A DNA stretch of 61,118 nt, filler included, from Dugesia japonica (Eukaryota): the NCBI GenBank assembly GCA_001938525.1. It is 6 parts of 6 records of this genome, joined end to end, with 100 filler letters (N's around TTAATTAATTAA, not from the genome) between each part and the next. Parts side by side here need not be neighbours in the genome. Positions count along the whole stretch, not along the records: positions 29,536 to 41,920 come from MQRL01345803.1; 5 more parts are not named here. One strand, 5' to 3'. The position numbers and the translations under genes are program-made. Under the pieces are notes generated by a model. It made no database searches and was not told where the DNA came from. It was given only the letters and a program-made list of their open reading frames with translations. The first letter of the stretch is position 1; the number at the start of each line of letters is the position of its first letter. Of this stretch, positions 12,745-58,525 are shown in pieces.

Positions 12745-13068
12745 TTAGAAAGTATTTACATCGTTGACCATATCAATTGATTCAACTTCATTTTTACATA
12801 ATAAGACCTTAGTAATGTGTTTACCAGGAATCATTAATAATCCAATATTACGTGTTAGATTTTCATATTGAGATTCTTCTGGACTAGGATATTCAATACA
12901 ATTTTTCATTACAATATTTGCATTACAGTCTGTACAAATTAAATTACCTTTTACGATTCTACCATCAGAAATTTCGATTTTTAAAGGGAAATTAAAAAAT
13001 TCATCAAAAATATTAGTGATATGACTTTTATCAGTTTCATTCATTACATGACAACTAGAAGCACTCAT
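12745..13068 (-). CDS. NAA38: LSM-domain NatC auxiliary subunit (NAA38/LSMD1-like)
   Basis: LKIEISDGRIVKGNLICTDCNANIVM (Sm1) and RNIGLLMIPGKHITKV (Sm2); the CTD and MxPGxHI motifs are typical of LSMD1. Confidence 0.8.
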   Translation of the reverse strand: MSASSCHVMNETDKSHITNIFDEFFNFPLKIEISDGRIVKGNLICTDCNANIVMKNCIEYPSPEESQYENLTRNIGLLMIPGKHITKVLLCKNEVESIDMVNDVNTF

Positions 13069-14249
13069 TAAAAAAAAATTAATTTTTAAAATTTAAAAAA
13101 CAGGCTAAGTATTTAAACAACTACATTTCCTCAAATAATAAATTTATTAAATAATTTTAGATTTAACAAATGATTAAAAATAAAGCCGAAGTTTGAAATT
13201 TTCATTTTTACTTTTATATTAATGAATGCGAAGATTGTGTTGTTTCCAATTTCTAGATTGTTCAATATTTTTGTATAATTGTTATTGTAACTGATGCATT
13301 TCGTTACCTGCTTTCTCCAATTGATTTCGTATTATTTCCTTTTTTGTGTGTGTTTGGGTTACTTAGGTGTTTTTAAAAAGTAGTTCAAGTCGAGTGTCTG
13401 TGTGAAAGAGTGAGTTTGGACACGAGTTGGAGCTGGAGATCGTAGAAATAATTTTTTTTAGTTTTTAAGATTTGGTTGTTGTTGGACAAAAATTCTGCCT
13501 ATACATTGTCTAAAGGACTTTTGAGGTTGGATGAATGGTTTACCCTAGGACTATGGTAGCGCATGGGCACAGTGATGAGTTATCATGGGGTGTTTTTTGG
13601 GAGGGTGTATATTTGTATGGAGTTGTTGGATCTTGTTGGTTGATGGGTTATTGGAGAGGTAATATGATGGTGAATATTTGTGATGTCGATTGTGTTTTAA
13701 TTTCTGATTGGTTGATATTTGTAAGTAGTATAAAAGTGTTAAAAAAAATTTCGGAGGGGGATGCTAGTTTGTGTGGATAGAGAATCAATTATTGGATTTT
13801 AAGATTTATTTAAAATTTTTCGGGAGGGAGTGTGCGACATATTAATGTTTTGAAATCTTTATTTTAGTTTAAAATGCTGTATTTTGCTTAAAATGATGAA
13901 TTTATTGAACGTAACGGTATTTTTGTAAAAATGATGTATTTTTGAGTATTTTTTGAGTGAAAAGGGTTGTTTTTAATATTTTCTGAACAGGGAATATTAG
14001 AGTCTTGTAATTTTTTGAATTTTTTTTTGGCGAGAAATTAAAAAATTTTTTTTTGGTGGGAGATTTACAAATTTTTCTATTCTGATGAGAAATTAAATTT
14101 GTTTTTTTGGGCAGACTTTATATTTTGCATGGTATGGGGGAGTCTCTTTATTTTACATTATATGGATAGTCCTGATCTTTGATAAGATATTATTACAAGA
14201 TATCGGGAAGTCTTGATATTTTGATATTATTGCATGATATGAGCAGTCT

Positions 14250-19156: not shown

Positions 19157-19250
19157 CTTCGGGTATTTACATTGGAAAAGTTACGTAAATTTTTTACACA
19201 CGTAGGGTTACTGGATGTGTGCTGAGGTTTACCGCCACTATCCATCTACT
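19157..19250 (-). mobile_element. Polinton-type terminus (5'-AGTAGATGGATAGTGGCGG), abutting a truncated penton gene
   Basis: Reverse complement matches 41799-41901; similarity stops exactly at AGTAGAT in both copies. Confidence 0.6.
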
Positions 19251-20903: not shown

Positions 20904-23086
20904 TGCATTATAAATTTCATTTCAGCATTGGAGTCAATAGCAAAAACCAAGGTCACAACATGGTATGAAAATGCAAATGTGCCAATGTCTCCTCTAACAA
21001 CTCAACAAATGGCAGATTTTGAGAATGCAAATGAATGTTATTTATGTAAGAAGAAAAAGACGACAACTTTCAATAAATTTGTAAGAGATCATTGCCATAT
21101 TTGCGGTCAATATCTTTTAGCCTCTTGCAATGAATGCAAGACATGAGCAGACAAATCAGATGCATGTTGCCAGTATTTTTTTTACAACCTTAAAGGATAT
21201 GATCTACACCATATCCTCAAGCATGCAATCAGCAAGTTTGCCTGTTATAATTTAAGTGTGATCCCGCAAACGAAAGAAACGTTTTCAGCACTAACTGCAT
21301 ACATCAAAATAGACAAATGAAAAACCATATCCATCAAATTTTTGGATTCATTTCAATTTTTATCAGCATCGTTGAAGACACTAGCATCAAACTTGCAAGA
21401 TTATCCGCGGACAAAAACAGCATTCACCACAAATATCATAAAAGGAAAAGGTGTGTTTCCATACACATTAGCTAAATCATTTCAAGAACGGAAATCAATC
21501 ACCAGATTACCATCAAAATGGGATAATATCACCGATGAAGAATATGACGATGCCAATCAAGTTTGGGAGCAATATAAATGTGCCAATTTGTTGCAGTATA
21601 TGTTAATATATATGAAATTGGACATATATTTATTGGCTGATATTTTTGAACGATTTCGATCTCAAGTCAAGGAACAAGATGGACTCAAATCAGCCAATTT
21701 TATTTCAATTCCGGCTTTATGTTGGGCTACGGCGATCAAAACATGCCCACTTAAAATTGAATTGTTACAAGACCCGGAGTTGTACTTTTTTTCCAGTCAG
21801 GTATTAGAGGAGGGATGACCTTCGTTAATAAACATAAGGTCATCGCAGATGACAATACAAGTCTCCTATATATTGACATCAACAACCTTTATGGCTGGGC
21901 GTTGAGTCAGCCATTACTATATGGTAATTTCGAATGGATTGTCGACGAAGAACATTTGAAGACTCTGATTGAAATCCTGCCTTATTTGGATACTGAAAAT
22001 GATGAACGTGGACTGGTTTTCGAGGTAGATTTAGAAATTTCACCTGAGGAACACTGCAAGTTGGACCAATTGCCACTTGCTCCTATAAATAAATGTCCAC
22101 CAGGAAGTAGAGGTAAAAAGTTACTTTTGACCCATGAAACGAAGAAATATTATGTCATTCATTATCGTCTCTTACAGTTATTTATGAAATTGGGTGCAAA
22201 AGTTGAGAAGATACATAAAGCAGTATCAATCAGTCAAGGGTGTATTTTCAAATCGTACATTGAATTTAATTCCGAAAAAAGAGCGAAAAGTGTCAACGCA
22301 TTCGAGAAAGACTTTTATAAATTGAAAAACAACAGTTTTTATGGAAAAACTGTCGAAAATNNNNNNNNNNNNNNNNNNNNNNNNNNNNNNNNNNNNNNNN
22401 NNNNNNNNNNNNNNNNNNNNNNNNNNNNNNNNNNNNNNNNNNNNNNNNNNNNNNNNNNNNNNNNNNNNNNNNNNNNNNNNNNNNNNNNNNNNNNNNNNNN
22501 NNNNNNNNNNNNNNNNNNNNNNNNNNNNNNNNNNNNNNNNNNNNNNNNNNNNNNNNNNNNNNNNNNNNNNNNNNNNNNNNNNNNNNNNNNNNNNNAAATC
22601 AACATCATCGCAGGGGATACAGATAGCTTCTTTCTCGAATGTAAAAATGTCAATCAGCGAAATCAGTTACTCCTAGCAATTATAGAAGTCCGGCTTTTGG
22701 ACACCTCCAATTTCAAAAAAGATGATCTGCTTTATTCATCATCATTAACTGCGGTCATCGGTAAATTTAAGGATGAAAATGAAGGCCGATCAAATTTCAA
22801 AGAATGGATTTTTCTTCGTCCGAAATCGTATTCGCTGCAAACGGATACCGAAACCAAGATGAAAAGTAAAGGTTTATCCTTAAAACAAACATCGATAAAG
22901 CATCAAGATTATGTGGATGCCTATGAAAATGGAAAAGAAAAAAGAGTGGANCAAACAAGAATTGGATCGGTGAATCACCAGCTCTTCACCATTAAATCAT
23001 CAAAGAAAGCGCTGGATCCATTTGATGACAAGAGGAAATGGACTGGGAAAACAGCAGTGTGGCATATAGTCACTATTCTATATTGA
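20904..23086 (+). pseudogene. Polinton protein-primed family B DNA polymerase (element 1)
   Basis: CYLC...VRDHCHICG zinc insert, YNLKGYD, FLDSFQFLSASL, KGVFPY, YIDINNLYG, KLKNNSFYGKT, GDTDS, LRPKSY, FDDKR; split by frameshifts. Confidence 0.93.
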
Positions 23087-40218: not shown

Positions 40219-40810
40219 GGCCGGTAGAGTTTGCATGAACTTTAAATGGTACTATCACATAGCTCATGGATACCCGGTCGGCTAGAAGAGTTCGTCTGCT
40301 ACTTAAATAGTACTCTCAACGTGACTAGAAGCAAGAAATGTGACAAAAGTAAATTAACACAACCCACAGGAAGACTTAGTACAATAAGGGGCCTCAACTA
40401 TCATACTAGCCGAGATTAGCAGTTGTGAAATTGGTCTGATCAACCATACATCTGAGATACGATCGGCTCAGTTGTTCGCAGCAAATGCTGCTTGAGTAAG
40501 TATTACTGTTATAAAATGAGGAAAGCGACGGAACCGGAAGGGAAAGCCAGTCTTGGTGGAAAGCGATAAACCGTCCACGTCTTATACAAGGTAACGAATC
40601 TCAGATGTAAGTAACGGTAATACACTTACTTCCGGGACGTACTAAATACACTTCAGAGGGCACGATCAATTCTGGTCTAGGCTTATAAAAGTCTCATAGT
40701 AGCCATAGCTACTGGATATAACCAGCTAACTCGTCACCAGAATTATTTAATGCGCCTGTACAAGCAAAATGCAAATGACTAAGGCAATGAACGGTATTGC
40801 CTCCCTCTGA
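40219..40810 (+). ncRNA. Large multi-domain structured RNA candidate in a long leader upstream of gag
   Basis: Many nested stems, GAAA loops and a 12-bp crossing interaction 40447-58/40598-609; see findings. Confidence 0.55.
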
Positions 40811-40864
40811 TCAAACCGACAATATTATACTAGTTATTCGAAACATAAGCAATTTGCAAATAAG

Positions 40865-41155
40865 TTATAAGAGTAAATCACAAAAGGATATTACGTTTTA
40901 GACAGCAAAGGTATATAAAGATAATTACAATTCAGAAGCAAATTGCGTAAAGTATTGTATTTCATGAGTAAATTACAAAAGGATATTACGTTTTGGTCGG
41001 CAAAGTTATATAAAAATTATTACAATTTAAAAGACAATTGCGAATAAGTATTGTATTTCCAGAGTAAATCACAAAGGGTTATTACGTTTCAGACAGCAAA
41101 ATGATACAAAAATCATTACAGTTCATGAGAAAAATTACAAAAGATTATTACATTA
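40865..41155 (+). repeat. ~96-bp tandem repeat, about three copies
   Basis: GAGTAAAT(C/T)ACAAA(A/G)GG(A/T)T(T)ATTACGTTT recurs near 40871, 40966 and 41062. Confidence 0.85.
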
Positions 41156-41640
41156 TCTCATAAGCAAATTATTAATAAGTAATAAAGCAATTATTGAATC
41201 AAATATAAAATTCAACATTAAATCAAGTTATAAAAATTAGTTATTGAATCAAGGTACAAAATTGTTAATGAAATCAAAATACAAAATCAGTCAGTAACTG
41301 CAAAATGACTACGAAGGACATCATAAAGTTAAAATGCGACTTTAAAATGAATCCCCAGTGATAGTAAGTTATGAATCGGGTATCAGCAGAAAACAAGTAG
41401 ATGTTAATCAGTAGCCCTAATAAAGAGTTTGACGAGGACGTCGAATTTAAACAAACCAAAAGTGGATGAAGAGATAAAACTGACTTTAAAAAATAAAGGC
41501 TAAATGATTAGCGGGGGTAATAATGTATTTCAGGTACCAAACATTCGAAGAAGCAAGCACAATCGAGTCCAAAAGATTTGTACCAATTGGTATTATCCAA
41601 GTAAATTAGTGTGTAATTATGTCTAATTTAGAAATCAAGT

Positions 41641-41798
41641 ATGAATAAAGAACGGAATATGCAAAGAACATTATTAGAACGTTATCGCGATAAATTCTTC
41701 AAAGGTAATCCCGAAGAAATAAATAAGTTTCTTCTAAGCTATGAAGAGCATGCCAAAGCTTTTGAGTGGGAAGAAAAGGACAAAATCAATATGATACC
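41641..41798 (+). pseudogene. Gypsy gag capsid N-terminal fragment, truncated by an insertion
   Basis: KFFKGNPEEINKFLLSYEEHAKAFEWEEKDKINMIP fits the FxG...FL..YE..A...W....K capsid pattern. Confidence 0.7.
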
Positions 41799-41920
41799 AG
41801 TAGATAGATAGTGGCGGGAAACCTCTGCACACATGCAGTACCCCCATCCCCCCCGTGTGTAAAAATTTATTACATAACTTTTCCAATGTAAATACCCGAA
41901 GACACACATTAGTGTGTATT
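41799..41920 (+). mobile_element. Polinton-type terminus (5'-AGTAGATAGATAGTGGCGGG) inserted in gag
   Basis: Homologous to 19157-19250 (-); begins exactly where the gag frame stops. Confidence 0.6.
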
Positions 41921-42020
41921 NNNNNNNNNNNNNNNNNNNNNNNNNNNNNNNNNNNNNNNNNNNNTTAATTAATTAANNNNNNNNNNNNNNNNNNNNNNNN
42001 NNNNNNNNNNNNNNNNNNNN
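41921..42020. other. Assembly contig spacer
   Basis: N44-TTAATTAATTAA-N44. Confidence 0.97.
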
Positions 42021-44952: not shown

Positions 44953-45362
44953 TCTTAAACCTTTTTTAATTGTTTTAAAAACACTGAAACAATAAACACA
45001 TTAAACACAAAGAATCCAATGAAATCCATATATTAAATCTATCCAATACATTCTTTTAAACTAGTAATGTGATACATACGCTTTGCCGACAACACCGACA
45101 CGACAGACACTCCAATTTGGCATTGCGTTTCAGTATAAAAATTATTCTTGTTTTAGTGTATCATTTATGTTAATGCAGGTGGATATTCTGTATATATAAA
45201 TTTATGTCGGCAAAGCGTATTTATCCCATTACTCGTTATATGTTTTTACGTTTTTATGTTTTAAATTTTTGTTTTGTTTTTTATGTTTTGTTTTTGAGAT
45301 TTTTAAAATATCCTACTCTAAACCACGAAAAAAACTGTTCAACTAAATTGTCTTTACTTAAA

Positions 45363-48300
45363 ATGGCTAGTAATCAGTTGATTTGTCCTTATGATCTTTG
45401 TAACAAGGTTTTTAAAAATAAATCAGGATTATCAGGTCATATTAGATCAAGATGTTGTTTTTTAGACAAAACAAGATTTAATTGTTTAAAATGTCTAAAA
45501 ACTTTGAGATCTATGAGGAGTTTAACTGAACATTTTAATTCTACTAATTGTGGAAATTCAGAAAAGGTTCCGTTGTTTTGTGAAGTATGTAATAAAAAGT
45601 TTTCAAGCCAAAGTCGTGCAAAAACACATTTTAATTCAAATAAACATAAAGAAAAAGTTAATAAAATATTTTTTGATGAATTACCTGGAGAAGAAGTAAT
45701 TGATTTCGATCCAGAAATTAGAGATATCTTTAGAATATATAAAGATTATGAAATTGAATATTTTAGAGAAAGTAAAGTAGAATTAACTAGAAATCTAGAA
45801 TCTTTGGAAAGACCAGTAAAAATGATTAATAAATTTCAATCTGAAATCCAAGAAATAATTACAAAGTATTTTAATTATGGTAAAAATATTATTGTTCGAA
45901 TGAGTGTAAACTGTAATTATAATAAAGATGTTAACGGAGAAAATGTTGAAAGAAATTTTAATTCATATTCAAGTAATAAACAAATTACAATTGCAAGTGG
46001 AATTGATGAAAAGGTTAATGATATTTTAAATCAACTTCAAAGATATATTGAAGATGAAGATAAAAATGAATCTGGTTGGAATTTAAATTACATAGTTGAT
46101 TTTAAAATAGAACTTTCTAAATATCAATCTCTAGCTGGTTCCTCATACCAAAAATTATCGTTTTCAAAGCAAGGTGTAATTAATATACAAAATAAAGATG
46201 ATAAATGTTTTTTATATTCAATTTTAGCTCATAAACATATATTTAAAGATCAACCAACCAGAGTTAGTAATTATATTCAATATTTAGATGAATTAAAAAT
46301 TTTTGGAATTAAATTCCCTGTTCATATTGAAGATGTAAAAAAATTTGAAAAATTAAATGATTTCAAAATAAATGTATTTACTGTAACTAATGAAAAAATA
46401 ATCGAACCTTTATAAATTAATCATTATGAAACTAAACCCAAACCAGAAGAAAATAAATGTAATTTATTAGTTTATAAAAACCATTTTATTTTATGTAGAG
46501 ATTTACAAGTATTTTTTACAGTAAATAGAAACCAGAATCATTTGTGTATAAGATGTATGAATTGTTATTATAGTAAANACTTATTAATTAATCACCAAAA
46601 AGAATGTATTAATCCAGAAATCAGTAATGTAGTTTTTTCAAAACATTATAGTTATTATTATCAGAATTTTTTTTATAAAAACAAATTACCTTTTGTAGTT
46701 TATGGAGATTTTGAAAGTTGGACTAATATTAGTACAAAGAAACAAAAACCTTTATCACTTGGAATTTACTTAGTAAGTAAATATCAACATTTAATTAAAA
46801 ATGAATACAAAGAATTTACAGGAGAAAATATGCATCAAGACTTCTTTGAATTTTTAAATGAATTAAATGATAAATTAAAAGATATAAAAGAAAATAAATT
46901 AATAGAAAGTTATACTAGAACTAATCATCCTAAATTTGAGGAAACAACTAAATTCAGTTAATGTGATAAAGAAATTAAAATAGGGGAACAAGTACTCGAT
47001 CATGATCATTTTAACGGGGAATTTAGGGGTTATTCACATAGTAAATGTAATTTACAAGACAAATCAATTAAAGGTTTATTTATTCCTTTTTATTTTCACA
47101 ATGCTTCGGGTTATGATAATCATTTATTTTTTAAAGAATTAATTAGTAAATATCCAGGTTAGGTTAGAAAAATAATTCCACATTCAGATGAAGTTTACAT
47201 TTCTTTTGAATTTGGAAATCCTAAAGAACCAACAATAAGATTTTTAGACTCAGCAAGAATGTGTACTCAAACTTCAATTGAGAAAATTGGTTCAACGTTA
47301 AATGAATCAGGAAAATATAATCATTTAAAATTATTTAATTTAACTCCTAAAAAGATATCATTTCCATATGAATATGTAAAAGGAGAAAATATTAATGAAG
47401 TAATTGAATTATTAAAAAGAAACCATAAACCAACAAAAGAAGATTTTTTCAATATACTAAGACAAAAGAAAGTAACTGATCAAGAATATAATGAATTTGA
47501 ACAAGATTTTAATAACTTTAATAATTTATGGGATTACATGTTACATTACATGAAAAGTTTAGAGAAACTTGTCTAAATAATTATCAAATAGATCCAAGTT
47601 ATTGTTATTCAGCTCCAGGTTTAACTTGGAACGCTGGTATGAAATTTACCCAAGTTAAATTAAAATATGCTCAGAAAGAAACATGATAAATTTATTAAAA
47701 TAGAAAGAGGAGTTAGAGGTGGTTATTCTGGTGTTTGTGGAGAAAGACAAGTATTTAATCATAATAATAAAAAAAATCCAAAAAAAAAGAATAAATCAAG
47801 CTGAAATGAATGATTTATTAAAATTATTATTACAAGGAAAACCAATATTTTCACAAGATTATTTAGAAGAAACATTTTTAAAATATCTAAACGAGAATTC
47901 TTTGTATGCTAGTTGCATGACAAAGCCTTTACCAACAGGAGAAATCTATGATTGTAAAGACTTGGATTATATCAAATCAACTGATAAAGTTAATTATGTT
48001 TATGAAGTTGATTTAGAATATCCTCAAGAAATTCATGAGAAAACTAAATACTTTCCTTTAGCTCCGGAACCTTTAAATATTACAAAAGAAATGTTAGCTC
48101 CTTATCAATTAGGTNNNNNNNNNNNNNNNNNNNNNNNNNNNNNNNNNNNNNNNNNNNNNNNNNNNNNNNNNNNNNNNNNNNNNNNNNNNNNNNNNNNNNN
48201 NNNNNNNNNNNNNNNNNNNNNNNNNNNNNNNNNNNNNNNNNNNNNNNNNNNNNNNNNNNNNNNNNNNNNNNNNNNNNNNNNNNNNNNNNNNNNNNNNGAT

Positions 48301-49086
48301 AAAAGAAACGAAGCTAAAAGAAATAAAGATGTTTTTGGAGATGTTTTCTTTAAATTATTAAATAATGCTTTCTATGGGATAACTTTAGAAAATATAAGAA
48401 ATAGGTGTAATGTTGAAATTGTAGATAATGATAAAGATTATCAAAAGTTTACAAGTAAAATTAATTATAAATCTAGTAAAATATTTACAGGAGAATTTAA
48501 TCCTTCCGAAGCTAAAACAGCAGCAGTTTATCTTTACAAAACTAAATTAAAATATGATAAATTCCCATATATTGGTTTTACTATTTTGGAATATGCTAAA
48601 GAAGTTATTTACGATTTTATTTATAATCAGATGGATAAAGAAATTCCTAATAAATATAAAATTCATTACGCCGACACTGATAGTGTCTTTGTTGAAATAA
48701 AATGTCAAGAAAATCTAAACAAAGTAGAAAGTCTATTAGGAAATAATTTATTTCAAATGAAAGATGAAAAACCAAATAATGAAATAGTTAAATGTAATTT
48801 TATAAAAGCTTAAAGTTATATTATCCAAGACGATAAAGCTATAAAAGCAAAACATAAAGGAGTTTCTAAAGTAAATAAAATAGGGATGGAAGATTATGAT
48901 AAAGTTTTAGAAAACCCCAAAGAAATCATTTATGGAACTAATTATTCGCTTAAATCAAGGAAACATGAAATAGAATTAACTGAACAAAATAAAATAGCTT
49001 TAACTGGTTACGATGATAAAAGATTAATTGAAGACAATGGAATAAGAACTTGGCCTCATGGAAATAAATATAAATGTAATAATTGA
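45363..49086 (+). pseudogene. Polinton protein-primed PolB (element 2) with N-terminal zinc fingers and vOTU-like region
   Basis: Three C2H2/C2HC fingers, ESGW...GSSY...INIQNKDDKCFLYSILA, YGDFES, DHDHFNGEFRG..H..CN, HNASGYD, FLDS, FPYEY, NSLY, KLLNNAFYG, YADTDS, YDDKR; several in-frame stops and frameshifts. Confidence 0.93.
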
Positions 49087-53066: not shown

Positions 53067-54515
53067 ATGGCTTGTTTGGGTGGAGAAGCTCAAAAGCGAC
53101 ATGAATATTTTCTTAAAAAAATAACAAAAAAGAATAATGAAGTAAAAAATATCCACCGCATAATTCTGATTGGTACTGGTGAATCAGGGAAGTCAACATT
53201 TGTTAAACAAATGAAATTGTTGTCTTCAATAAATCAAACATTTCCAGATGTCTACAGAGCTAAATTTATTCCTGAAATTCAAAGAAATCTTGTTCAAGGT
53301 TTAACGGCTATTTTACAATTTATGGATCAAGTGAAATTAGATTTTAAACATGCAACTACACAGCTTTATTCGGCTAAGAAAGAACTATACGAAATTCGAG
53401 ATCAAATCGATAAAAATCCTGATATGATTGAAAAATATGCTGGAAGTTCGGATTTGGAAGTAAGAAATAATTTCTATGATAATTGCAAGGCACTGTGGAG
53501 AGATCCGAATATACTTGATACATATCAAAGATCCAATGAATATCAATTAATTGATAGCGCACAATATTTTTTGGATAAAATAGACTTAATACGCAGTCCT
53601 GAGTATAAACCTTCTGATGATGATGTTCTCCAATGCCGAACAAAGACTCTTGGAATTCACACTGAAATTATAAATTACAATAACGTAAATTTTGAATTGG
53701 TAGACGTTGGTGGTCAAAGAGATCAAAGAGCTAAGTGGATTGAAGCATTAAGTGATGGTGTAACTGCAGTAATATTTCTTACTGATGTTTCCGCTTATGA
53801 TATGGTTCTTGCCGAAGATCAAACAACAAATCGCTTACGAGAGTCTGTCAGTCTTCTTGGTCAAGTCTGGACAAAGAATCCGCTAAGAGATAAGTCTATT
53901 ATACTGTTTCTTAATAAACAAGATAAATTAGAAATGAAAGTAAGAAAGGGTAGAACTCATATTGAAACTTATTTCCCGGAATTTAAACAGGAAAAATGCA
54001 AGCATATATTCGAATTGATTAAAGATTTAAAAGCTGCAAGAGGAAAGCGTAGTAAAAAAGAAAGTGATATTTGGGAAAAATATTTTTCTTATTTTTTACC
54101 ACAAATGAGAGATCAGAAAAAAAGTGACAATCCAGAAGATGCCATACGTCAACAACGCGAAACTCAGATCATCAATGAGTACTCACAAATCCAATCTCAA
54201 GTAGCCAAAGTATTTAATGATGGATCAGTTGATAAATGGCTAACAGATGGAGACGATGATGATATATTTTCGCATTTAATGAAAAATGATGAATTCATAA
54301 GTTTTCATAAGCGAATAATGAATATTACATTTTACCAAGTGGTGAGTATTACTTTTTTCATAGAAAATCAATTCTTACATCAATGTGAGCAAACCAGTAA
54401 TCGCCACATTTATCCATACCCAACTACAGCTATTGATAAAAGAAATGTGGATCGCGTTTTCGAGTCTTGTAAAGATATACTGCAGGGAAAACTTCTTACT
54501 GAAATAATGGCATAA
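53067..54515 (+). CDS. Heterotrimeric G-protein alpha subunit, divergent Gs-like, intronless
   Basis: GTGESGKST, RSNEYQLIDSAQYFLDK, RTKTLGI, DVGGQRDQRAKW, TNRLRES, ILFLNKQD, YFPEF, TTAID; Cys3; AATAAA downstream. Confidence 0.93.
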   Translation: MACLGGEAQKRHEYFLKKITKKNNEVKNIHRIILIGTGESGKSTFVKQMKLLSSINQTFPDVYRAKFIPEIQRNLVQGLTAILQFMDQVKLDFKHATTQLYSAKKELYEIRDQIDKNPDMIEKYAGSSDLEVRNNFYDNCKALWRDPNILDTYQRSNEYQLIDSAQYFLDKIDLIRSPEYKPSDDDVLQCRTKTLGIHTEIINYNNVNFELVDVGGQRDQRAKWIEALSDGVTAVIFLTDVSAYDMVLAEDQTTNRLRESVSLLGQVWTKNPLRDKSIILFLNKQDKLEMKVRKGRTHIETYFPEFKQEKCKHIFELIKDLKAARGKRSKKESDIWEKYFSYFLPQMRDQKKSDNPEDAIRQQRETQIINEYSQIQSQVAKVFNDGSVDKWLTDGDDDDIFSHLMKNDEFISFHKRIMNITFYQVVSITFFIENQFLHQCEQTSNRHIYPYPTTAIDKRNVDRVFESCKDILQGKLLTEIMA

Positions 54516-56862: not shown

Positions 56863-57750
56863 GTTAGTTTTTAAGCAAGATTTATTTATTATTTATAATA
56901 TTTTTTCAAATCTGAAATTAATCTAAATTTGTTATCATCAAACATATTTCATGTCAGCAAGTCCATGACTACGTCATTTATTATGTATTCGACTACCGGG
57001 AATTAAATTATTAGTTAATTATTAATTAAATTATTAAAAAAGTGAATAATTACCAAAAAAAATAAACTTTCACAATAAACAAAAAAAATTTACAAATAAT
57101 AATTCAAAATTTCACGGAATAATCATCCAATTATAACAATCAAAATTATTCCAAAAATAATTTCTATGCTCAGATTTCACATATTTTTTATACCAATCGG
57201 TTAAGAATTTGGTTTTTTCAATATTTTACTGAGATTTTTCGAACAAAATAAAAACTATTTCAAATTTTCTCATCAATCCGTCTCATCCAATCAATAGAGA
57301 GAAAATTTTGTGCTGAGTAAGAATAACACTGGTAAAAATCACCGAAACGTATTCCCGAGGAAATAAATGGAAATAACAAAAAAAAAACAAACAGGATATC
57401 TATAGATCACGGATTCTCAAAGAGCGGCCTGCAATATCGATACGATATATATTATATTCTTATTAAAAATAAATAAGTAAATAGTAAAATATTTTAATAT
57501 AAGAGTGAATTTACTTTCGTGCTAATAAATAATGTGATTTTATAATAACTGTTGTTACAGTTAAAGATTTATATTATTATATAACAAAATAAGATCGATT
57601 TCAGTTAGTTTTTTGTTTTAATAAATATGTAATTATATATTTATATTTTTGTATTAAATTTAGTATACTAATAACAAAAATAATTGTTTTAATATTGTTT
57701 TGATTTTATTCCGTTTTTTTGGCCCCCAAAAATATTATAATTTTAAATTT

Positions 57751-58290
57751 TTCCGCCAAAAAATCGGTAATATTAAATTTTCCCGCCAAAAAATCGGAAA
57801 TATTAAATTTTCCCGCCAAAAAATCGGAAATATTAAATTTTCTCGCCAACAAATCGGTAATATTAAATTTTTCCGCCAACAAATCGGTAATATTAAATTT
57901 TTCCGCCAAAAAATCGGTAATATTAAATTGGCCTTTCAAAAAATCGGTAATATTAAATTGGCCTTTCAAAAAATCGGTAATATTAAATTTTTCCACCAAA
58001 AAATCGGTAATATTAAATTTTCCCGCCAAAAAATCGGTAATATTAAATTTTCCCGCCAAAAATTCGGTAATATTAAATTTTCCCGCCAACAAATCGGTAA
58101 TATTAAATTTTCCTGCCAAAAAATCGGTAATATTAAATTTTTCCGCCAAAAAATCGGTAATAACAAATTTTCCCGCCAAAAAATCGGTAATAACAAATTT
58201 TCCCGCCAAAAAATCGGTAATAACAAATTTTCCCGCCAAAAAATCGGTAATAACAAATTTTCCTGCCAAAAAATCGGTAATATTAAATTT
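57751..58290 (+). repeat. 30-bp tandem satellite, 18 copies
   Basis: (TCCCGCCAAAAAATCGGTAATATTAAATTT)n with minor variants. Confidence 0.97.
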
Positions 58291-58369
58291 GTTGGGCTTT
58301 TAGGATTTTTTATTTCTTTTACAAAAAACAATATTCATCGCTCTCATTCACTTCCGATAAATTGTCACC

Positions 58370-58525
58370 TGATCTAGAGGCAACCTAAAAACCTCAAGCG
58401 TTTGCATCACCTCTGTGATGTGCCCCTCTCTTTCCTCGGGTCCAGCGCGACTTTGTGNTATCGCGTCTTATTCATCGATCCATGAACCCTACAGTAATAA
58501 ACCTCTTTCGTTCAACACTAGATCA
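58370..58525 (+). ncRNA. Candidate multibranch RNA structure
   Basis: Closing stem TGATCTAG/CTAGATCA with internal hairpins GAGG/CCTC, GCATCAC/GTGATGT, GCGCGA/TCGCGT and TTCAT/ATGAA. Confidence 0.45.

Follow-up and report, generated by a model that had tools for sequence, protein, structure and literature searches.

A pairing-conserved RNA fold in a truncated Ty3/Gypsy leader from Dugesia japonica: a candidate dimerisation and packaging signal

A real structured RNA, with a core of about 270 nt that is conserved by pairing, lies on the gag-sense strand of a retroelement in the flatworm Dugesia japonica. Judged from its sequence, the host is a truncated Ty3/Gypsy element with the folded island in the middle of its leader, and the RNA is best classed as an uncatalogued, cis-acting retroelement RNA with a predicted function. 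The preliminary description of this region (40219-40810) had proposed a structured RNA of about 600 nt; this is supported for the core, called domain 1 below, and not for the full length. The window, i.e., the whole stretch of DNA analysed (61,118 nucleotides, filler included), is AT-rich animal DNA and holds no second copy of the island.

The host element and its leader

Two distinct retroelements stand head to head near 39100-39290. Outside the island itself, the one on the + strand has the following features:

39270-39276, + strand: LTR-like end ..CCTAACA, by sequence reading; candidate 5' limit of the leader
39287-39293, + strand: primer-binding-site-like TGGCGCC, by sequence reading only
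39300-40120, + strand: A-rich spacer, GC 0.17-0.28
40148-40167, + strand: small hairpin with a 6-bp stem and loop TCCTCCTA, at a depth peak upstream of the range first described
40855-41133, + strand: three tandem copies of a 95-96 bp repeat (repeat family D3), between the island and gag
41528-41534, + strand: splice-acceptor-like TTTCAG/G from a regular-expression scan, about 85 nt before the likely Gag start
41619-41811, + strand: Ty3/Gypsy gag start, the frame broken near its start in the present copy and the element cut off at about 41810

The two motifs at 39270-39293 are of the types of a putative LTR end and a putative primer-binding site; neither a second LTR nor a tRNA matching TGGCGCC was found for the + element. 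From the motif at 39287 to the second gag start the leader is non-coding and 2.3 kb long. The preliminary description had placed the island upstream of a Gypsy gag, and the downstream ORF start is indeed that of a real Gag: a 55-aa piece (41641-41805) is 63% identical (E 3e-14) to a relative, P0121, whose N-terminus aligns by eye with the ATG at 41619 and which matches both Pfam Retrotrans_gag (E 1e-8) and Ty3-capsid-like clusters. By way of this relative, the Gag is of the Retrotrans_gag/Ty3-capsid type. Word-based homologue searches with the + strand Gag piece and with the − strand Gag returned no match, and viral contigs scanned with P0121 held no relative. A further candidate relative, P0122, was rejected as a chance match driven by repeats.

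The Gags of the two strands do not align with each other. The stretch 35860-39054 (− strand) looks like a second, decayed Gypsy element. Its gag begins at 39054 and is followed by a zinc knuckle (Pfam E 1.6e-5), by protease/RT-like pieces and by what resembles an integrase tail; a purine tract then precedes a likely 3' LTR near 35860. The 5' leader of this second element seems to have been replaced by the end of the + element. The + strand gag is itself cut off by a common repeat end of about 100 bp, seen at 41798-41900 and, inverted and 83% identical, at 19158-19250. The copy at 41798-41900 is probably the terminus of another transposon.

Within the leader, the island is GC-enriched, as first described (0.41-0.44 across 40260-40780 vs 0.17-0.28 across 39300-40120). 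It was also rightly called non-coding: in 40100-40900 no frame stays open for more than 64 codons, and on that length the idea of a coding remnant was rejected. Of 14 spacer windows starting at 39300-40080, 13 have a folding z above −1, up to +3.1; the stretch 39480-39760 (+ strand) in particular reaches +2.5 to +3.1 against its own shuffles, as if avoiding structure. The hairpin at 40148-40167 has a single mismatch in the present copy, 40153/40162, where almost every other contig has a pair. GAGGA at 40518-22 is the complement of the hairpin loop, TCCTCCTA, so that the two may make a second long-range contact. The tandem repeats at 40855-41133 recall leader repeats of insect Gypsy-type elements.

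The leader contains 34 ATGs, of which 13, the likely Gag start included, lie beyond the island; about 810 nt and 12 ATGs separate the end of the island (40810) from the likely Gag ATG (41619). The acceptor-like site at 41528-41534 is one of 15 such regular-expression matches in the leader, and the suggestion of a spliced Gag message near 41534 is a guess from this motif.

Other features of the window belong to different genes and elements. A single-exon G-protein alpha (Gs-like) gene of 482 aa, in a flatworm-specific long form, occupies 53067-54515 (+ strand); its nearest named relatives are from trematodes and cestodes (at most 62%), and two further relatives stand at 88-91%. Translated motifs point to two broken DNA polymerase B-like genes at 21321-23086 and 45174-48813 (both + strand), presumably Polinton/Maverick-like; the Pfam check of these genes covered only the zinc fingers at 45174. 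There is an LSm-domain gene at 12745-13092 (− strand; Pfam E 5e-9), a set of decayed ORF pieces with a GIY-YIG-like motif at 34212-34875 (+ strand), which we take to be the remnant of a Penelope-like element, and a tandem array at 57664-58377 with a period of about 30-33 bp and frames open on both strands.

Fold and conservation of the island

Every stem motif named in the preliminary description is present and in place, and related copies led to some being redrawn, as set out below. The resulting features are:

40376-40645, + strand: domain 1, closed by P1 (40376-82/40639-45) and P1b (40390-94/40634-38), with a junction carrying two long arms
40414-40493, + strand: arm 1 as revised (40414-20/40487-93, 40422-27/40477-82, 40429-34/40468-73, 40436-41/40461-66), with a 19-nt loop
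40437-42 and 40460-65, + strand: palindromes TGATCA and CGATCG, paired with one another in the monomer; candidate sites of dimer initiation
40448-40458, + strand: 5' strand of the long-range knot, in the loop of arm 1
40495-40630, + strand: arm 2 (40495-511/40612-30), with inner stems 40517-21/40580-84, 40527-31/40571-75 and 40533-36/40554-57
40598-40608, + strand: 3' strand of the knot, in an internal loop of arm 2
40653-40810, + strand: domain 2, a predicted multibranch fold closed by 40653-60/40803-10

Taken whole, the 592 nt first drawn do not behave as a special fold: comparison with shuffles failed for the full length, with a minimum free energy (MFE) z of −0.39 on the + strand (38 of 100 shuffles as good) and −0.96 on the − strand. 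At z +1.3, the 5' part (40219-40375) is less stable than its shuffles, and related contigs cover 40181-40315 thinly. Stems of at least 7 bp number 12, against 7.7 ± 2.6, a borderline excess reached by 20 of 300 shuffles; a perfect complement of at least 12 bp arose in 2 of 300 dinucleotide shuffles.

Because standard folding cannot count a crossing helix, the energy of domain 1 was obtained with the two knot strands held open and the energy of the knot duplex added afterwards, shuffles being treated identically. The open-strand fold of domain 1 (40376-40645) has −62.0 kcal/mol and the knot duplex a further −16.2; together they give z −3.5, with 0 of 40 shuffles as good, for bounds set post hoc and without a loop-strain penalty. 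Domain 2, in which most pair probabilities exceed 0.85, has z −4.4 with its own chosen bounds, yet 9 of 30 shuffled islands hold an equally stable 158-nt window. Among 14 listed differences in domain 2, eight are unpaired, one keeps its pair, and five need a partner change that is absent among the 40 of 142 variants listed, a listing too short for such absences to count against the pairs.

Related copies were sought in 24 listed runs, 16 of which contain part of the stretch (all small shares); five were mapped, namely X1, X5 and X4 (DNA) and X17 and X18 (RNA). Contigs fitting 40100-40900 at 80-100% number 458 in X1, 519 in X5, and 55 in X4, which is from a second organism. Summed depth in X1 and X5 is 15,000-122,000 over 40343-40639 vs about 100-940 over 40181-40315, and the X4 profile has the same shape. 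Domain 1 is thus about 100-fold deeper than its 5' flank, showing that the core is common to far more sequence than the flank, with the proviso that depth is not equal to copy number. Variants considered are 40 of the 142 in 40100-40900, among which the near-fixed 40602 and 40620 do not figure, and, in 40405-40665, 40 of the 42 at 13% or more, plus 24 of 49 loose ends.

Transcripts of core relatives are present: 8 RNA reads in X17 and 65 in X18 fall on the core, mostly less than 90% alike and in both directions in similar numbers, for which reasons the transcribed strand and the expression of the present copy are not callable from RNA. The exact stretch is not among the matches listed from the RNA runs.

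Between 40405 and 40645, nearly all other DNA contigs depart from the present copy at thirteen positions. On the pairs as first drawn, seven of these are unpaired, three are kept as wobbles (40499, 40602, 40620) and three are broken (40447, 40500, 40504), where random placement of all 13 would give 4.3 breaks (P 0.30). None of the nine transitions among them breaks a first-drawn pair (2.3 expected, P 0.04), and two of those counted as unpaired convert a wobble to a Watson-Crick pair in stems not listed at first (40554/40536 and 40634/40394), as was recognised post hoc. The three transitions that fall on first-drawn pairs all give G-U on the + strand and A-C mismatches on the − strand, in agreement with the gag-sense preference claimed at the outset.

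In the closing stem, P1 has pair probabilities of 0.95-1.0, the end pair excepted. P1b was recognised only after variants had been seen: the change at 40634 turns U-G into U-A, and loose ends of divergent families read GTCC at 40390-93, a full match to GGAC should their 3' strand carry it.

Related copies support the revised, long arm 1 over the short stems first drawn. Five listed variants disrupt the CAACT/AGTTG and GCAGC/GCTGC stems, which together with AGCC/GGCT give way to one longer helix; the partition function of the present copy alone, with the knot strands open, likewise favours a long arm, 40417-441 with 40461-490. Changes at 40478 and 40481 turn U-G into U-A within 40422-27/40477-82, but would break GCAGC/GCTGC; the change at 40469 gives G-U with 40433, and that at 40493 gives G-C with 40414. 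Six changes that break the arm 1 model drawn from the window only are at 40421 and 40428-31, beside internal loops, so the pairs there are not conserved.

The double changes come from short pieces. Record 10 of X4 (533 nt, aligned over 40422-485) has GTTGG before and CCAGC after the aligned part, making five pairs: A-U becomes G-C at both 40415 and 40418 (two double changes), and helix 40415-19 is kept, with one extra base in the adjoining loop; the 5' loose end was linked by length, the 3' loose end by place. Record 11 of X4 has a double change at 40420, with T facing A where the present copy has C-G. From the RNA run X18, a loose end supplies a fully Watson-Crick partner for GTTGTG, and CCGACC on the same loose end pairs with GGTTGG of another, a linkage that we infer. 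The chance of such fits of 5-6 nt is 0.13, 0.06 and 0.03 each and the families are related, so the support for arm 1 is good but is not formal covariation.

Among the variants listed, divergent RNA reads included, none falls at 40432-46, 40455-58 or 40460-68. Both palindromes are inside sequence of this kind, at or near the highest depth, and their weight comes from this invariance, since six-base palindromes are frequent here (16 in 40100-40900). TGATCA fits the loop of a 4-bp hairpin, yet is paired in the knot-compatible fold; the 40431-47 hairpin has −2.1 kcal/mol as a monomer vs −16.0 as a homodimer.

The arm 2 helix first drawn, 40495-511/40612-30, stands in part: the changes at 40499 and 40620, like that at 40554, are wobble-compatible, whereas 40500/40623 and 40504/40619 are mismatched in most copies. 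The crossing helix was introduced as a perfect 12-bp complement, which it is in the present copy only; in almost all other contigs 40447 differs, with loss of the end pair, and 40602 differs, with G-C becoming G-U, leaving 11 bp with one wobble in most copies. The pair 40454/40602, G-C here and G-U in the majority of copies, is the single knot pair seen to vary compatibly: A at 40454 makes up about 4% of DNA depth in X1 and X5 and 13% in X4, and would give A-U because 40602 is T in nearly all DNA contigs, the two sites being read from separate contigs. Double compensatory changes across copies are found in arm 1; covariation in the knot is thin.

Positions 40450-54 vary among divergent families. 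Three RNA reads with two starts carry adjacent changes at 40601-02, with no matching partner among the variants listed, and in the MFE structure the same helix also forms as a nested stem at the expense of arm 2, a rival conformation. On chance statistics, energy and one varying pair, the predicted long-range knot is probable but unproven. An 11-bp helix between two closed loops would amount to a full turn, an unusual and topologically demanding arrangement for RNA; co-transcriptional threading is possible, because transcription reaches the 3' strand of the knot ahead of those of arm 2 and P1.

The preliminary description could match the island to no group I or II intron, RNase P/MRP or hammerhead core, and Rfam likewise has no match. 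Across the window, none of the 4227 Rfam families reaches its gathering score, and none matches 39000-42000 at E up to 10; this covers the Rfam covariance models of group I and II introns, RNase P/MRP, small self-cleaving ribozymes and rRNA, as well as catalogued IRES models (E up to 10). The group II catalytic domain V is not recognised. Scans with the first island patterns gave 0 matches in viral contigs and 0 in metagenomes. Three candidate loci were discarded as chance: those from prokaryote genomes (L001) and metagenomes (L002) have no similarity to the island beyond the pattern, and that from viral contigs (L003) has no BLAST row at E up to 1. Titles and abstract openings of the papers retrieved hold no description of a structured RNA in a flatworm Gypsy leader; three island motifs are absent from one supplementary file of PMC8532177.

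Possible roles of the folded leader

Retroviral Psi lies between the primer site and gag. The reading that we prefer, tentatively and with confidence a little short of even, is that the folded leader RNA serves as the dimerisation/packaging signal (Psi) of the full-length element RNA, because this would account for position, structural conservation and palindromes together. The island is on the sense strand between the primer-site-like motif (by motif reading only) and gag, and its structure is conserved in the double and wobble changes of arm 1, from short pieces. Among the roles first offered (IRES, large ribozyme, packaging or dimerisation scaffold), this one fits best, while an IRES fits poorly and a ribozyme is without positive evidence.

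In such a role, the loop-loop helix would lock the two arms into a compact fold, and the palindromes, paired within one molecule, would pair between two molecules and so start a dimer, to whose purine-rich loops Gag would then bind. Gag would probably be translated from a spliced or otherwise shortened RNA without the element, given the 34 ATGs of the leader; only full-length RNA would be packaged, since Gag-coding RNA would lack the element.

Several points count against Psi. Retroviral Psi sits closer to the primer site than the roughly 1.1 kb that separates this element from its primer-site-like motif; any palindrome yields a stable homodimer, and there are 16 of six bases in 800 nt; the 13 near-fixed differences are unremarkable overall (3 breaks vs 4.3 expected, P 0.30); the RNA changes at 40601-02 are without partners among the variants listed; the RNA reads as a whole run in both directions; and the splice is a guess from a motif. 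In Ty1, a Gag-binding site is within the 5' pseudoknot, and kissing loops mediate HIV dimerisation; PMC4974528, which gives both, also states that importance of the Ty1 pseudoknot for packaging could not be demonstrated, which by analogy would weigh against Psi. Packaging signals of LTR-retrotransposons are reported to be difficult to identify, structure being all that is conserved in them (PMC4558846).

A more far-reaching proposal, which we regard as unlikely, is that the island represents an undescribed class of large tertiary-folded RNA shared by several divergent flatworm Gypsy families. Its 11-bp loop-loop helix, a full turn that could be threaded co-transcriptionally, would be mechanically locked, with a monomer/dimer switch that would sort RNA between translation and packaging, or with a catalytic role.

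By analogy with the MTE of murine MusD, or with CTEs, the element might instead promote nuclear export of unspliced RNA by recruiting host export factors, with the loop-loop contact needed; we hold this to be rather unlikely. The MTE, of about 400 nt, is described as rich in stem-loops and as containing a pseudoknot and a kissing contact of a loop with an internal loop; export needs both contacts (PMC4588558). The island is of the same size class and architecture: a multi-stem fold with a loop-internal-loop contact is predicted, and one knot pair shows compatible variation. The many ATGs of the leader, together with the acceptor-like motif close to gag, suggest that the RNA may exist both spliced and unspliced, and export is compatible with packaging, as one element could do both jobs. 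However, the MTE adjoins the 3' LTR (PMC4588558) whereas the present element is in the leader, and it has no Rfam match.

Translation control of Gag, whether by an IRES, by shunting or otherwise, is improbable. The 34 ATGs make simple scanning unlikely, the A-rich spacer upstream is mostly unstructured, and some Drosophila errantiviruses carry IRES sequences (PMC3383448); but about 810 nt, 12 ATGs and the three 95-bp repeats stand between the island and the likely start codon, and Rfam has no IRES match at E up to 10.

A scaffold for the start of reverse transcription or for strand transfer, on the analogy of the Ty1 5' pseudoknot, is very improbable. The Ty1 knot pairs nt 1-7 (R region) with 264-270, just behind the primer site, in 7 bp (PMC4974528), whereas the knot strands here (40448-58 and 40598-608) lie over 1.1 kb beyond the primer-site-like motif.

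Still less probable is a regulatory island acting as DNA (internal promoter, enhancer or insulator), in which the stems would be incidental. Insulators and enhancers are present in the 5' UTRs of Gypsy and ZAM (PMC3383448), the folding energy of the whole region is ordinary, and the invariant core could consist of protein-binding sites; double compensatory changes and one-strand wobble changes, on the other hand, are expected of a single-stranded fold and not of sites in duplex DNA.

The least probable reading of all is an undescribed large ribozyme or intron-derived catalytic core: the multi-helix fold, long-range contact, GAAA-type loops and conserved unpaired purines would suit it, and the loop-internal-loop helix recalls the alpha-alpha' contact that group II intron domain I has along with a junction with long arms, but Rfam gives nothing for 39000-42000 at E up to 10, the few RNA reads (8 and 65) do not cluster at their starts or ends, and cleavage 1.1 kb inside the genomic RNA would destroy that RNA.

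Comparison with known systems

A 2016 review calls the RNA structure of Ty3 uncharacterised (PMC4974528). The island offers a compact, well-bounded candidate in an animal Ty3/Gypsy family; its natural variants, abundant and found in at least two organisms, are enough for a rigorous covariation model. If it is true that dominant families share the element, it could help to explain how very long, ATG-rich leaders are handled.

With the Psi/DIS class, as represented by the cis-elements of Ty1 and Ty3 (PMC4974528), the element has in common its position between a primer-site-like motif and gag, structure in the genome sense, maintenance by pairing and not by sequence alone, and conserved palindromes. 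It differs in its distances, about 1.1 kb to the primer site and 0.8-1 kb to gag with A-rich spacers as insulation, and in having two arms of 80-135 nt plus an 11-bp intramolecular loop-loop helix in place of a few short stem-loops; it is without an Rfam match, and its dimerisation and Gag binding are predictions only. Group II intron domain I is similar in its junction with long arms and its loop-to-internal-loop helix, and unlike it in that the island has no Rfam group II match.

The Ty1 5'-terminal pseudoknot (PMC4974528) also spans a long range and also belongs to the 5' region of an LTR-retrotransposon RNA, whereas the pairing here is of 11 bp, leaves the LTR uninvolved and falls within a self-contained domain. 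Compared by description, the MusD MTE (PMC4588558) is alike in size, in its many stems, in joining a terminal loop to an internal one over a long range, and in belonging to an LTR retroelement; it lies beside the 3' LTR of a betaretrovirus-like element, and the present RNA in the 5' leader of a Ty3/Gypsy element.
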